A stretch of DNA of 64,000 nt, from the sequence record PZ583738.1; one strand, given 5' to 3'. The stretch comes from a phage. The notes under the pieces were generated by a model, which saw only the letters and a program-made list of their open reading frames with translations, was not told where the DNA came from and did no database searches. This document shows, piece by piece, positions 46,300 to 55,123 of the stretch. Both the position numbers and the translations under genes were made by a program. Each line of letters begins with the position of its first letter. Positions within the stretch are counted from its first letter, which is position 1.

Positions 46300-48607
<2,308 letters not shown>

Positions 48608-49526: not shown

Positions 49527-50315
49527 TTATTCATCAAAGAAACTATCGTCAAAGCTATCCTGTTTTGCCTTCGGAGGAGCCTCAAGTCCACGACCATTCT
49601 GCACAAAATATGGTTTAACATATTCAGCTGCTTCTGTGTTAATCTCATCAGATTCTGCATAAGGGATATCGCTGATATCTGTAAGGCCATCAATATTGTG
49701 GATTGGTTGTAAATCGAGCTCGCTGAATTCTGAAATATTAATACCTTCATTCCGTTGCAATTCAGGTTTAAGTTCTTCTCCGGAGTAAATGTATTTGCTC
49801 GCGGTGATTTTACGAATGGCGTTTTGACCTACCTGATAGAATGGGTCGTAAGGTTGCACCCATGTAATTTCGAACAGGCTGTTATCAAGAGGGAAATAAA
49901 TCAAATCCCCTGCAATAGGTTCGGTTCCGTTGCATTGATGTTTAAACAGATTAGGGTTAATCGATATTGTGATTTCATCATTCACAGTCATACCGAATTT
50001 ACTAAAGATAGAACCATCCCCCTGATAAGCATCGAACGTATCCAGATAGCCAGCAAATTTCCATGCTTTATCAAATTTACTCTGGAGGTCTTCACCGAAT
50101 AACAAATCCGGTTTAACGAATTGTCTTGGGATATAATAGAGAGACATTCCGCGCATCTGAATACTTTCAGCAACAATAGCATCAGCTAAAGTCTGGGTAT
50201 TTTCATGATGCATAAAGTTTACATATTGGTTGAGTATCTCTGACGAGTTTGTATTGTCATACCCGGTCCCGTCTTCAAGCCGGGCGAATAAGCTTGCATC
50301 ATAAGAATTACGCAT
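49527..50315 (-). CDS. 14: neck protein gp14
   Basis: 262 aa; position between 13 and 15; acidic C-terminus. Confidence 0.88.
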
Positions 50316-50943
50316 AATTCCATAATTTCCATTTTTCGGCTGTACTTTTACATCTGTAAATGACCGCAGCCGGAGTTATTGAATAATATTCTGCACATTT
50401 TCTTCCGGTACAAAATTCTAGGTCGCCAGTAATAATTTTACGTGCCGCCGGATTTTTATCATCAGAAAAATCAGGATGTCGGTCCTTAAAATCAATCCAC
50501 ATTCGCGCCGTTGACTCTTTACGACGTTTTAATCCTTCTTCGGACCATTCTCTTTGTTTTGCGGCTTCCGACATTCGTTTTCTTGATTCAGCTGTTCTCT
50601 TTTTACCAAAAGCAGGAGAATCTTCTGGACGACTATAACCTTCTGGACCACCTCCCCCTGTTGGATGTAAATTTGCACAATTATCAAAACTTTCTAAAAG
50701 TTCACTAACTAGTAAAGCTTCGGCTTCCTTTAATAGAGCAGGTGATTCAAAAGGTTTAGACCAGGTAATATCGACTAAACATTTTCTTCCATATTTTTGT
50801 TTAGCTCGTTTAACAATAGTACCCGACCCAAAATAACTATCCGCTTTAAAATCTTCATATGGCGAATGACGTTTACCGCCATACACCATTACCCCACCAG
50901 ATGTTTCAAATGTCGACACATAAAGTCTATAATAAGTAGCCAT
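50308..50943 (-). CDS. putative GIY-YIG-type homing endonuclease with NUMOD-like DNA-binding motifs, between genes 13 and 14
   Basis: N-terminal Y-x-L-Y ... VYGG pair at GIY/YIG spacing (~11 aa) followed by R, E and N positions; [13 protein letters not shown] (NUMOD3-like) and [24 protein letters not shown] (NUMOD1-like); overlaps both neighbours. Confidence 0.6.
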
Positions 50944-51881
50944 TAGCCCACCAATATAGGAGTCGGTGCATCCAGCAGGTCAAGTTCTTCACGAAGACGT
51001 TCTTTTTCCATACGAGCTTCTTCAATTAAACGAACACCATCAACTGTGACGCCACCTGGCATCATCATTCCCTGGTGTTTAGCTAATACGTTGCCATTAA
51101 CTTCCTTAACGAGCGCCGTGGCATAGTCTTTCACCCAACGGTTGTTGTATGCACCATCTTGAAGTCCAAGGTCCTCACCTGCTCTCATGCCGCTTATTCT
51201 GCGCGCCGGGTTATCCCACTGTGCACCAGCATTCCATGGATTATCACAATCGGCCGAAGCAAAACCATAGCCAGCTGTATTGCCTACCATTGAATCCACA
51301 CCGTTATATGATTTGGTATAAACTTCAATTACAATCACATCTCCCTGACGGAAGTTGCCCATAATTTTAAGTTGTTCAGTATCGTCATTATACCAGTAAT
51401 CTGGCAGCGGAACCATCAGGTCTTGCATCATTGAACGGTATTGCATAAGCTGTGTAAAATAACCAAGGTCTGCACCAAAAGCATTTGGTCCAAAGCTGTT
51501 ACATGAGCTACCCATTCCACCGTTAATCCCAGCAAGTCCCAGAACAAAATCTGTGAACCACGGATATGTGGCTTGCCCGTCCATCGAAGTTAATGAACCG
51601 ACGTTAGTACGAATAATCTGCGTTACTGCAAAAATATTACGGCCTTTTAAATCGAAAACACCATCGCGGAATTTCTGCTGTGAAACTTCATCATGGCCAA
51701 TATAAAAAGCCTGATAACCTTTGTTATAACCATTATAGTGATATTCGCCATATAATTCTAATGCGCGCTGGATGCAATCATAAACCTGTTCGGTCGTAAC
51801 TTCGATATTCGTGATTGGCGCACCAAGACGACGAAGGATTGCATCTTTTAATTGTTTCGGGTTGTATGATTCAGTTGCCAT
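50943..51881 (-). CDS. 13: neck protein gp13
   Basis: 312 aa; position; TATAAATA ~20 nt upstream. Confidence 0.9.
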
Positions 51882-51899: not shown

Positions 51900-51907
51900 T
51901 ATTTATA
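51900..51907 (-). promoter_or_regulatory. late promoter TATAAATA for gene 13
   Basis: Exact octamer on minus strand ~20 nt upstream of gene 13 ATG, directly after the wac terminator. Confidence 0.7.
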
Positions 51908-51910
51908 CGA

Positions 51911-51934
51911 AAAAAGGGCCGAAGCCCTTTTATT
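51911..51934 (-). terminator. terminator GGGC-CGAA-GCCC with flanking A6/T-run after wac
   Basis: On minus strand the hairpin is followed by T6, then the gene 13 late promoter. Confidence 0.75.
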
Positions 51935-53564
51935 ATGGTGCTGGATTTAATGTCACAAATGTTGACAAAAGAACCCATGCATTATCAACTAGAACATACG
52001 GGAGGCCATCGGCCACAGGAGCGACAGGAGGCCTTTTGGCGAGCTCTGTTTCTAAGGCTGATACTTTACCTTCTAAAGTAGTTATCTTCGTCTCGGCCGC
52101 ATCCAGGCGACCAGGAAGCGGAGTTACTGTACCTTCAAGAGTTGTCACACGAGTAGTTAATGGTGCGATTTTTGCAGTATCGAGTTTAATTGCATCAATC
52201 TCGGTTTTAGCATCGATAATTTCAGCCCAGGTTCCTTGCTTACGTCCATATAGCTTATTATCCAGTGGTGCATCGTTCAGCTTGGACGCCATCAGCATAT
52301 CCAAGTTAATTACAACCGGAAGAACACCACGTTCAGCCACAGTAGCACCGTTAGGGTTTGTACCATTCATCTGACTAGTTAAAGTCAAAATAGAACCTTT
52401 CATACCAGTGTTATTTGTACCAATTTCAGCTTGTACATCCTGGAGACCTGATGCAGTTTCGTTAGCCAGCGTAGTGGTTGCATTCAACTTATACGTGATA
52501 GTGTTTGGCTCTGGAGATTGCTCTGTACCGATTCTCTGAGAAAGCCATGCAGTGGTACCACGCAAACCGGAACTTGAATCCTGGCCAACAACAACCTGTA
52601 ATCCATTGACATCCGCTCGTAAAGCACTGATTCGACCATTAATTGTCAATGGCTCCAGTGCTGTTCCAATATCAGCTTCAACCTTAGTGAGTCTTGGTTT
52701 GATATTCGCAATATCTGTTTCATTGACCGAAACACGCCCACCAAGATTTTCAACGCGGGTTGTAATTGCAATCCCTGTACCAAAACCAATAGCTTCTTGA
52801 ATGTTGGCAATATCTTCGTCAATTTCGACTGCTTTACCATCAAGAGTATTCAGTCTAACAAATACAGCCGGTTTACCTATTGCTAAAGTAGACTCACCTA
52901 ATTCTTCGCGAATTTTAATTACTTTTACGTTAAGAGAACCAACATCAGAATCATGGTAATTGTCCTCAAGAGTCTTAATACGAACTCCATGAGCAACAAT
53001 AGCAGAACTGTTATCGATGATGCGGCGTTTCATGCCTTTTGATGGATTGCCGATAACCTGGAGACCATTTATATCTTGGTCAACATACTGACCTAATTCA
53101 TTTTTAATCCATACGAGGTCATTACGAACTGTGCGATAATATGAATCGGTTAACGGGTCATAAGCACCAACATCTTCTTTTAACGTTTTAAGACCTTCGG
53201 ATGTTTCACTTGACAGCAATTCGGTATTAAATTGACGTTCATCAAGGTCAAGAATATCCGTACGGTTTTTTTCAATTTGTTTAACAACTTCTGTGTTAGT
53301 TGTTATATCCAAAGCTTCCTGAATATTATTGACGTTATCAATAATTTCGTTGATTTTTTCTTTAGATGCATTTGAGTTGTCGTCGAGTGTATCTACGTTT
53401 GTTTGAACGCCAACTGCAGCGGCGTTCAAATTACCATCATAACCATATTTGGTACTGGCCGCAGTCATACAATCGCCGTTTTGTATCCAACGAATTCTCT
53501 GTTGACCTTCGTCTGGAATACCGATGCTATACGGCAGCTCTTTGAGACTGAGTTTATTAATCAT
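51933..53564 (-). CDS. wac: fibritin (whisker antigen control protein)
   Basis: Start set at MINKLSLKELPYSIGIPDEGQQRIRWI (AAGGA RBS), matching the T4 Wac N-terminus; coiled-coil body; C-terminal foldon-like (GLPYVLVDNAWVLLSTF). Confidence 0.92.
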   Translation of the reverse strand: MINKLSLKELPYSIGIPDEGQQRIRWIQNGDCMTAASTKYGYDGNLNAAAVGVQTNVDTLDDNSNASKEKINEIIDNVNNIQEALDITTNTEVVKQIEKNRTDILDLDERQFNTELLSSETSEGLKTLKEDVGAYDPLTDSYYRTVRNDLVWIKNELGQYVDQDINGLQVIGNPSKGMKRRIIDNSSAIVAHGVRIKTLEDNYHDSDVGSLNVKVIKIREELGESTLAIGKPAVFVRLNTLDGKAVEIDEDIANIQEAIGFGTGIAITTRVENLGGRVSVNETDIANIKPRLTKVEADIGTALEPLTINGRISALRADVNGLQVVVGQDSSSGLRGTTAWLSQRIGTEQSPEPNTITYKLNATTTLANETASGLQDVQAEIGTNNTGMKGSILTLTSQMNGTNPNGATVAERGVLPVVINLDMLMASKLNDAPLDNKLYGRKQGTWAEIIDAKTEIDAIKLDTAKIAPLTTRVTTLEGTVTPLPGRLDAAETKITTLEGKVSALETELAKRPPVAPVADGLPYVLVDNAWVLLSTFVTLNPAP

Positions 53565-53572
53565 TTTGGTCC

Positions 53573-55123
53573 TTAGTAATGAATTTTGATAATATAGTTT
53601 AAAGACATATTCCATGGGCGAGTTTCATAACCAATAAGACCTTCACGGTTTAATGTACCTAAAGCATCTCTGCCGCCACCGAGTTCAAATCCATCGTTAG
53701 TAAAATATGAAGCGTTATCCCAGTCTGCATATTTTCTTGTGCCCAGATAACCCTGATAAACTGATGCACCAAATGGAGCTTCGTTGCGTTGGTATTCACC
53801 CCAGCCACCCGCGTGTTTATGATATGACATTTGCTGAGCTTGTACACCACCGACCCATGAACCATCACAACCAACACCCAAACGGTCTTTGCCATAACCA
53901 TCTTGACCGCGGTTATTCAGAATATGTCCACCGGTACCAGCACCGCGAACAAACAAACCGCGCATATCAGGAATACCGACGTTAGTCCAATCGCCACCAA
54001 AACGAGTTCCAACAGTATTTCGATAGTCAGGGAATTGGTCACCATTAACGGTGCCACCATGACACATAATCCAACCAGGAGGAGCACTATCACCCGCGAA
54101 CATCATCACTGTTCCGACAGGAACGCGTTCGGAAGCATAACGCTGTGTGGAAAGTAATTGGCCACCCATATGGGCCGTATTAGAATCAAAATTGCCGGTG
54201 GAAATATAATCTAAAGAAAGACTTCCATTAATTCGTTGACCGCCGCGAGTGTTGATTACATCGGCGTTCCAAGCCAGCGCCCCGGCACCGTCACCACCAG
54301 GAGCAACCCCAGCCTGAGTAGTTAATCTAACAACACCGCGAATATCGGTTGTAGCACCACGACCATTAAGAGTTGCTCCGGTTACCGCAACACCATCAGC
54401 ACTGTTATTAATCTCTGACTGAGTACCAAGACGAATAATCCCCGCGCGGTCTTGTGTTGCTGTACGAGCATTTAAACCAGCCGGAGAAATTGCTACACCG
54501 TCACCCAGAGTTCCTGCTTGCACTTCAGCATTTGTAGCAATTCGTACTAAACCAGAAACAGTTTGTGTGGCAGTTGAATAAGTCGGAAGAGCTGCTGTTG
54601 CTTTGCCAATTGCCAGAGCAACTTTCAACGGAGACATAGCGGTTGTATCATCTGTACCAGCTAAAGCTGCATCCTCGGTACTAATACGAAGAACACCCAA
54701 ATTATTTTCGGTACCGACACGAACAGCAAAAACATCATCAATTGTTGCTTTTAATGAAGACGGAACAATAGCCGCATCGGTTAATGTCCCGGCAATTGCT
54801 TCAGCATTGGTTGCATAACGGGTAATACCTACATAAGTTTCTGTGGCTTGCGTAGGGATGTCTAAACGAGCTTTTAAGGTCGCTGGAGTAACTGCAGAGT
54901 CTGGACTAATACCATCAATAACTTCTTGTGTGGTGGCTAGTCTGATGAGTCCTGCAGTCGTTTCGGAAGAGGCTGGGATATATCCATCTAACGCAATTTT
55001 ATTAAGAGACCCTAAAGCCTCTTGTACGTTGGTAACAGTCGACGGGAAAGCTGTCCCCGTCGGGTCGAACGTTTTATATTCAGATTTATCGCTAATGTGT
55101 TTTAGCGTGTTAGTCGTTGTCAT
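53573..55123 (-). CDS. 12: short tail fiber protein gp12
   Basis: 516 aa; C-terminal receptor-binding region matches T4 gp12 (QQMSYHKHAGG.GEY, RPWN.SLNYIIK). Confidence 0.95.
   Translation of the reverse strand: MTTTNTLKHISDKSEYKTFDPTGTAFPSTVTNVQEALGSLNKIALDGYIPASSETTAGLIRLATTQEVIDGISPDSAVTPATLKARLDIPTQATETYVGITRYATNAEAIAGTLTDAAIVPSSLKATIDDVFAVRVGTENNLGVLRISTEDAALAGTDDTTAMSPLKVALAIGKATAALPTYSTATQTVSGLVRIATNAEVQAGTLGDGVAISPAGLNARTATQDRAGIIRLGTQSEINNSADGVAVTGATLNGRGATTDIRGVVRLTTQAGVAPGGDGAGALAWNADVINTRGGQRINGSLSLDYISTGNFDSNTAHMGGQLLSTQRYASERVPVGTVMMFAGDSAPPGWIMCHGGTVNGDQFPDYRNTVGTRFGGDWTNVGIPDMRGLFVRGAGTGGHILNNRGQDGYGKDRLGVGCDGSWVGGVQAQQMSYHKHAGGWGEYQRNEAPFGASVYQGYLGTRKYADWDNASYFTNDGFELGGGRDALGTLNREGLIGYETRPWNMSLNYIIKIHY

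Follow-up and report, generated by a model that had tools for sequence, protein, structure and literature searches.

The open reading frame (ORF) situated between neck genes 13 and 14 of the phage studied here is very probably a free-standing, Seg-type homing endonuclease gene that is likely still active. The window, that is, the whole analysed stretch of 64,000 nucleotides, belongs to Gaprivervirus. The ORF occupies positions 50308..50943 of the minus strand, on which all other features described below lie as well; according to the ORF listing it starts with ATG and encodes 211 amino acids (aa), and its assignment to the Seg-type GIY-YIG endonucleases relies on the ORF call, the match to PHROG 314 and the identity to annotated relatives. 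On its upstream side lies gene 13 (50943..51881), encoding the 312-aa neck protein or head–tail adaptor Ad2 (PHROG 211, E 4.4e-42, and annotations in relatives). On the downstream side lies gene 14 (49527..50315), encoding the 262-aa neck protein or head closure protein Hc2 (Pfam T4_neck-protein, E 4e-102), whose N-terminus, when compared with that of relatives, is altered, MRNSYDAS instead of MATYDSR. There is no intron around the ORF: the flanks are protein-coding, and the ORF stands alone between genes 13 and 14, overlapping both of them, while in the relatives without it the two genes abut.

The ORF does overlap the stop of gene 13 and the start of gene 14, as mentioned already in the preliminary description. 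The gene 13 stop codon TAA (50945–50943) and the endonuclease ATG (50943–50941) have one base in common, yielding TAATG, and this overlap is followed by ATGGCTACTTAT, encoding M-A-T-Y (50932..50945 in total). The junction alignments demonstrate that M-A-T-Y of the endonuclease is the native start and codons 1–4 of gene 14 in the relatives without the element. Indeed, gene 14 of the non-carriers opens with ATGGCTACTTATGAC (MATYD), and so does that of T4; at the protein level, the gp14 N-terminus is MATYD in DK-13, VR7, a20 and T4. In the window, the same initial 12 nt open the endonuclease ORF, which reads MATYYRLY…. At the other border, the endonuclease stop codon TAA (50310–50308) sits in ATGCGTAA (50308..50315), and the same 8 nt hold the gp14 ATG (50315–50313), which is the earliest start codon in the gp14 ORF. 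Direct reading of the sequence places this replacement start within the Y-A-stop codons of the endonuclease, and gene 14 restarts at the 3′ end of the endonuclease ORF as ATGCGTAATTCTTATGAT (MRNSYD). The arrangement indicates an element that was inserted after codon 4 of gene 14, took over the start of this gene and donated a replacement start from its own 3′ end.

In Gaprivervirus, the ORF is present in nine phage records (six phages and RefSeq duplicates) with 96–99% aa identity, and it is annotated as an endonuclease at the same site in VR26, SP18, RZ, P8 and M719, either as 'segC homing endonuclease' or as 'putative endonuclease'. About two dozen close relatives have no such ORF. The gp13–gp14 segment is 2355 nt long in the window versus 1724 nt in DK-13, VR7, TH41, P479, EAWsc9 and VR20, and the junction alignment defines a net insertion of 631 bp (50301..50931) relative to the relatives without the element, with a 5-bp direct repeat CTTAT at 50932–50936 and 50301–50305. 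Presence and absence are precise, as at least 22 records lack exactly 631 bp, their flanks being 94–99% identical.

This distribution bears on the possibility that the ORF encodes a non-nuclease accessory protein of the neck, or some other structural protein, as its location inside the neck gene cluster might suggest. A comparison of synteny at the 13–14 junction had been proposed as a check, and it demonstrates that the ORF is missing from most close relatives, and hence this is not a conserved structural locus. The ORF is also missing from T4, which has no ORF between genes 13 and 14, while the neck genes of these phages are otherwise intact. With so many close relatives doing without the ORF, a structural role is excluded; besides, the fold and the profiles point to the GIY-YIG and I-TevI DNA-binding families. 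The structural reading is already contradicted by these data, and we give it almost no credence.

The GIY-YIG catalytic domain is assigned to the N-terminal half of the protein, from aa 1 to about 100 (50644..50943), and features the motifs RLY8, VY21GG, D35xY37xGSG, KYG52, E75, N91 and GGGG. The full-length ORF is matched by PHROG 314 (phrog_314), described as 'homing endonuclease', with E 8.6e-30. On the other hand, the search with profile HMMs that had been recommended for this protein produced no direct match to the Pfam or NCBIfam GIY-YIG models. The models PF01541 and PF19835 do not match at E ≤ 1 in the window protein or in its nine closest relatives, the NCBIfam match to TIGR01453 (group I intron endonuclease) is weak (E 0.014), and a single-sequence phmmer search of the window protein against the PDB gave no match. 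As the direct profile searches failed, we deduced the membership by means of family profiles, a comparison of folds and sequences intermediate between the window protein and the curated models.

The best PDB match of the predicted fold is the I-TevI catalytic domain, and this predicted fold is of the beta-beta-alpha-beta-alpha type that characterizes the GIY-YIG superfamily. The hhalign alignment with I-TevI has E 7.7e-7 for the full length and 7.3e-8 for the N-domain. It pairs Y8 with Y6, Y21 with Y17, E75 with E75 and N91 with N90, so that R6-L7-Y8 is situated opposite G4-I5-Y6, and V20-Y21-G22-G23 opposite V16-Y17-V18-G19. The spacing of the GIY and YIG tyrosines is within the usual 10–13 residues, with a hairpin two residues longer than that of I-TevI. 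Among 149 family representatives, Y21 and G23 do not vary, and at least 90% conservation is seen for Y8, for E75, corresponding to the metal-binding Glu of I-TevI, and for N91, the equivalent of the structural Asn N90. The pair formed by Y5-R-L-Y8 and V20-Y-G-G23, initially compared with GIY and YIG by spacing, is thus beyond a chance resemblance, being conserved in the 149 representatives and aligned to the catalytic residues of I-TevI.

The conserved Arg of I-TevI, R27, has no aligned Arg in the window protein, a low-confidence alignment placing D31 at this position. The residues K24, R25 and H26, situated directly after YGG and conserved within the subfamily, are candidates for the Arg27 counterpart. 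The arrangement around the missing Arg27 equivalent is the same in T4 SegC.

The intermediate sequences were provided by a search with the N-domain profile (residues 1–108) against 1.84 billion representatives at E ≤ 1e-3, which matched 2124 proteins. Among the best 148 of these 2124 N-domain homologues, SegE_GIY-YIG (PF19835) was found in 58, GIY-YIG (PF01541) in 33 and NUMOD3 in 43; the PF19835 and PF01541 domains fall in the same N-terminal region as the profile match. Judging by these matches, the link to the curated GIY-YIG models is transitive only, via remote homologues.

The C-terminal half contains two candidate DNA-binding modules, both of which had been noticed as motifs, at residues 117–129 (NUMOD3-like) and 177–200 (NUMOD1-like), and both motifs are there. 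The NUMOD3-like DNA-binding helix spans aa 109–125 (50569..50619). In the window protein its Pfam NUMOD3 score is 17.4 bits (E 0.0044), that is, below the cut-off of 20.4; still, NUMOD3 matches all ten aligned family members at E ≤ 1, the best E being 3.9e-4, and the assignment holds for the family while remaining sub-threshold for this particular protein. In the alignment this stretch pairs with the NUMOD3 segment of T4 SegC. A second similar stretch, at aa about 134–149, follows next and was identified by inspection only.

The second module, at aa about 162–209 (50317..50460), is a predicted I-TevI-type helix-turn-helix DNA-binding subdomain. The family profile matches PDB 1i3j, the I-TevI DNA-binding domain, with E 3.5e-5 over the C-terminal helix-turn-helix; PF20987 (I-TevI DNA-binding domain) is found in eight of the ten aligned relatives; and hhalign places aa 162–209 opposite I-TevI 197–244. 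The relatives for this C-terminal analysis, nine in number with 53–97% identity, came from a collection of 5.8 billion proteins. The region had been likened to NUMOD1, and it does look like a DNA-binding module, but of the I-TevI helix-turn-helix kind, as the Pfam NUMOD1 model itself has no match.

Taken as a whole, these features describe a predicted endonuclease of a divergent, SegC/SegE-like GIY-YIG kind, in which a segment containing NUMOD3 connects the nuclease domain to a DNA-binding tail of the I-TevI type, without a zinc finger. It would act in the manner of the T4 Seg enzymes and I-TevI. The testable properties of a Seg-type GIY-YIG homing endonuclease appear to be present, apart from a direct match to a curated profile and from the conserved Arg, to which no Arg of the window protein aligns. 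The initial assignment to Seg-type GIY-YIG/NUMOD endonucleases is supported by PHROG 314 and by the profile alignments with I-TevI and SegC, save for the two Pfam model names.

The copies closest to the window gene are those of VR26 (AIZ02810, 'putative endonuclease, similar to SegC'), SP18 (ADO19516, 'segC homing endonuclease'), RZ, P8, pEC-M719-6WT.2 and TH40. All of them share with it the locus, the length of 211 aa and 96–99% identity, and in these Gaprivervirus copies, as in the window, the ORF overlaps the start of gene 14 by 8 nt and is accompanied by the linked tract in gene 14 described below. The collection of 15 billion proteins contains no exact copy of the window endonuclease sequence, and our literature searches turned up no experimental work on an endonuclease from the 13/14 junction.

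T4 SegC, listed among mobile endonucleases (PMC2988022), resembles the window protein in having the SegC/SegE-like variant of the motifs, Y-x-G, D-x-Y-x-GSG, KYG, E and Y/C-N-x-x-GG-x-GG, followed by the NUMOD3 segment. The hhalign probability for this pair is 96.8% (E 3e-10), with identity of about 27% over 122 columns. When the window protein was used as a tblastn query, T4 gave no match at E ≤ 1e-5, and the likeness is at the profile level only. Both T4 segC and the window gene are promoter-less cassettes overlapping the neighbouring ORFs, and such arrangements were described for T4 segC, segF and mobE (PMC2988022). However, T4 segC is situated between genes 5.1 and 5.3, its product has 140 aa, and the C-terminal helix-turn-helix is absent. 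As both the locus and the architecture differ, we rejected the possibility that the window gene is the T4 segC orthologue, and the 'segC' label in the SP18 and Phi1 records seems to be a tag of similarity, not of orthology. No similarity to T4 SegG was detected by hhalign.

I-TevI, the td intron endonuclease of T4 (PDB 1ln0, 1i3j), has the same general plan, with GIY-YIG at the N-terminus and a minor-groove helix and a helix-turn-helix at the C-terminus, and its catalytic Tyr, Tyr, Glu and Asn pair with those of the window protein. Unlike the window gene, it is encoded in an intron and has a zinc-finger linker. The linker of the window protein is shorter and has no zinc finger, residues of I-TevI from about 130 to 185 falling in hhalign gaps. 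The class of I-TevI-like intron endonucleases, defined by the group I intron and the zinc-finger linker, was considered and set aside, since the window gene has neither.

All seven Gaprivervirus copies are intact and encode 211 aa. They form two allelic lineages, window/VR26 and SP18-type, separated by dS 0.39 and dN 0.019, with dN/dS of about 0.05 (0.04–0.05). The window protein retains every position that is invariant or at least 90% conserved among the 149 family representatives. The divergence of the catalytic motifs, suspected from the start, is real, given that there is no direct Pfam GIY-YIG match; the further suggestion that they may be degenerate finds no support, with dN/dS at about 0.05 and every conserved position retained. 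By these measures, the endonuclease gene looks non-degenerate and subject to purifying selection.

The same data allow us to assess whether the gene is an inactive relic, whose nuclease is dead and whose ORF is retained only since the gene 14 start and the translational coupling need ribosomes reading through it. This would fit the position of the gp14 ATG within the last codons of the ORF with no good Shine–Dalgarno sequence at the normal spacing, and also the facts that no equivalent of Arg27 was found and that Pfam GIY-YIG does not match directly. However, a need for translation alone would not constrain the amino acids, and dN/dS stays at about 0.05 across the entire ORF, catalytic domain included; Y8, Y21, G23, E75 and N91 are all kept; and the discordant ancestry of the gene and its flanks points to a recent transfer. 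An inactive relic is thus quite improbable.

The insertion of the endonuclease gene is accompanied by a linked tract at the 5′ end of gene 14 (50226..50298), with a core patch at 50226–50250, as seen in the alignment of carriers and non-carriers. All ten of the ten fixed differences between the two groups fall at 50226–50298, at most 75 nt from the insertion, and there are none in the other approximately 1650 aligned columns. A probe consisting of the 41-nt carrier-type patch matches exactly nine records, all of them with the endonuclease gene, while none of the 22 records with the non-carrier-type patch has this gene, that is, the linkage is perfect. Such a polymorphism in the flanking target gene, linked to the element, is what co-conversion produces.

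The target site would have to be located at the 13/14 junction or in the first approximately 90 nt of gene 14. Candidates for the basis of self-immunity are disruption of the junction, the substitutions at 50292–50298 and the 25-bp patch at 50226–50250. Alternatively, the linked tract could be hitch-hiking donor sequence instead of an immunity determinant. The change of Pro in gp14 'EILNPY' (Q here and K in the carriers from Mosigvirus and Slopekvirus) was considered as a general immunity rule and rejected, because NKY is likewise present in two phages without the gene, Mosigvirus a20 and Slopekvirus Rpl1; only the wider tract of 50–90 nt is consistently tied to the endonuclease gene.

The DK-13 genome has no element, yet its flanks are nearly identical to those of the window, with dS of 0.04–0.07 for genes 13 and 14. 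The window endonuclease gene is closest to that of VR26 (dS 0.15), while the VR26 flanks are at dS of about 0.3. The upstream junctions match the local non-carrier backgrounds, being DK-13-like in the window and VR7-like in VR26. The SP18-type genomes have a divergent 3′ end of gene 13 (…GILIG*) and a 3-nt spacer, whereas in the window and VR26 the end is of the non-carrier type and the junction is TAATG. The ancestry of the endonuclease gene, as estimated from these comparisons, is discordant with that of its flanks and points to a recent transfer. We also considered the loss of the element from DK-13 by simple deletion, and rejected it, as such an event could not bring back the MATYD start and the patch of the non-carrier type; for the same reason, be it a gain or a loss, recombination with another phage is needed. 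The combination of empty sites, a linked tract and discordant ancestry bears, at the sequence level, the signatures of intronless homing with co-conversion of the flanks.

Under homing, the events would proceed as follows. A carrier and a non-carrier phage would meet in one co-infected cell. The enzyme would bind and cut the empty allele at or near the 13/14 junction, within the first approximately 90 nt of gene 14. Recombination repair using the carrier as the template would then copy in the endonuclease gene and, along with it, the neighbouring 5′ end of gene 14. The carrier genome itself would be spared, its junction being interrupted by the insertion and its linked tract in gene 14 bearing substitutions.

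The same slot is occupied in other genera. Relatives with 49–59% identity are found between genes 13 and 14 in Dhakavirus (MX01), Mosigvirus (RPN187, F2, mogra), Slopekvirus (phT4A and Klebsiella phages) and Krischvirus (G5211), and in every case the gp14 ATG lies within the codons of the conserved C-terminal W-x-Y. The carriers are in the minority: 13 of about 150 records in Mosigvirus, 16 of about 100 in Slopekvirus and three of about 60 in Krischvirus. In these three genera carriers and non-carriers differ strongly over the first 50–90 nt of gene 14, beyond which their sequences are near-identical.

Krischvirus has two further GIY-YIG genes at the 13/14 junction, of the Phi1 type and of the KFS-EC type. 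The Phi1 'SegC' is free-standing, occupies the same slot, has 31% identity to the window protein over the full length, and its last codons contain the gp14 ATG; it differs in having the canonical YLYQIT…VYVG and a 66-nt upstream spacer with a hairpin. The KFS-EC gene is also a free-standing GIY-YIG gene in this slot, but with the canonical YVYKIT…IYVG, 271 aa and many NUMOD3 repeats, and it is situated upstream of an intact gene 14 start. The 13/14 junction is a site of recurrent invasion in at least five genera of T4-like phages.

The minority status of the carriers is relevant to one more explanation, namely that the protein is a domesticated nuclease or DNA-binding protein, kept for the benefit of the phage, for example for marker exclusion or for regulation of the neck operon, and not for its own spread. 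Strong purifying selection and the probable expression from a late structural operon are consistent with this, and there are precedents: in T4, marker exclusion against T2 is brought about by SegF and SegG, and I-TevI also serves as its own repressor (PMC2988022). However, carriers form a minority of each genus (nine with versus 22 without in Gaprivervirus), which is typical of a selfish element. Moreover, the mechanism of marker exclusion is that of homing, and here the difference is of emphasis only. We regard domestication as unlikely and retain the free-standing homing endonuclease as the best description.

A single T4-type late promoter motif, TATAAATA (51900..51907), was identified by the motif search 18 nt upstream of gene 13, and there is no other before gene 14; inside the region, neither promoter-like nor terminator-like signals exceed the shuffled expectation. 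With one late motif upstream of gene 13 and no internal signals, late co-transcription of gene 13 with the endonuclease gene and gene 14 is probable. The overlaps suggest translational coupling of the endonuclease to gp13 via TAATG and of gp14, whose ATG has the poor Shine–Dalgarno context noted above, to the endonuclease ORF via ATGCGTAA. It is conceivable, although we propose it only tentatively, that synthesis of gp14, an essential neck protein, depends on translation of the endonuclease ORF, which would have captured both the start and the coupling to gp13; this would make the element hard to lose and would allow the endonuclease gene and the 5′ end of gene 14 to move between genera as a unit.

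Annotations of near-identical genes at this site go back to the SP18 record (GQ981382), and in this sense the gene is already known. The capture of a start codon and a flank tract in perfect linkage make neat details, but hold no surprise for specialists, and the importance beyond annotation is little. In practical terms, the analysis can be used to correct the misleading 'segC' labels and the mis-called starts of gp14 and of the endonuclease in public records, and the protein is a candidate site-specific nuclease. For the family, the analysis confirms as genuine Seg-type homing endonucleases a divergent branch of GIY-YIG proteins that escapes the Pfam GIY-YIG models. For the T4-like phages, the 13/14 junction provides a clean natural case of intronless homing, with precise empty sites, a linked tract, start-codon capture and recurrent invasion.

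The start codons of two relevant genes look wrong in the public annotations. In SP18, gp14 (L002:1028-1714) is annotated from an internal Met, so that 34 conserved residues at its N-terminus are left out. For the VR26 endonuclease (L005:1809-2390), the annotated frame is 18 codons too short; the complete 211-aa ORF is intact and shows 99.1% identity with the window ORF. The alignment of the VR26 locus (L005) to the window consists of two pieces, spanning 4037 nt vs 3500 nt of the query. The surplus of about 540 bp is situated in the wac (fibritin) gene, window region 51933-53615, and is a neck whisker length polymorphism that has no relation to the endonuclease gene.

Across the whole window there are 19 copies of the T4 late-promoter motif TATAAATA, vs 4.2 expected from shuffles; examples are those at 51900-51907, 46800-46807 and 46301-46308. 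Seventeen of the 19 copies lie on the minus strand, a bias consistent with transcription of a block of late structural genes on that strand.

Within the element-linked tract at the 5' end of gene 14, the window has non-carrier-type bases (the type of relatives without the endonuclease gene) at 50283, 50271 and 50268, flanked on either side by carrier-type sites, at 50298 and at 50226-50250. This small mosaic (50268-50283) could have resulted from heteroduplex repair in a past homing event.

The gene 13/14 spacer of RB49 contains a hairpin, GGGGGAGTATTCCCCC (L021:770-805). In G5211 only its left arm and loop are retained, TTTATTGGGGGAGTATT (L017:1469-1485), immediately 5' of the endonuclease ATG, and therefore the left insertion boundary lies inside an RB49-type hairpin. 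Comparison of the Krischvirus loci yields four states of this junction. It is empty in RB49 (L021), and in G5211 it is occupied by a gene of the same family as the window endonuclease (L017:1486-2130). Phi1 has the Phi1-type 'SegC', 31% identical to the window endonuclease (L016:1495-2079), and KFS-EC has a 271-aa canonical GIY-YIG protein with many NUMOD3 repeats (L022:823-1638). The Krischvirus gene 13/14 junction is a site where different GIY-YIG lineages land recurrently.
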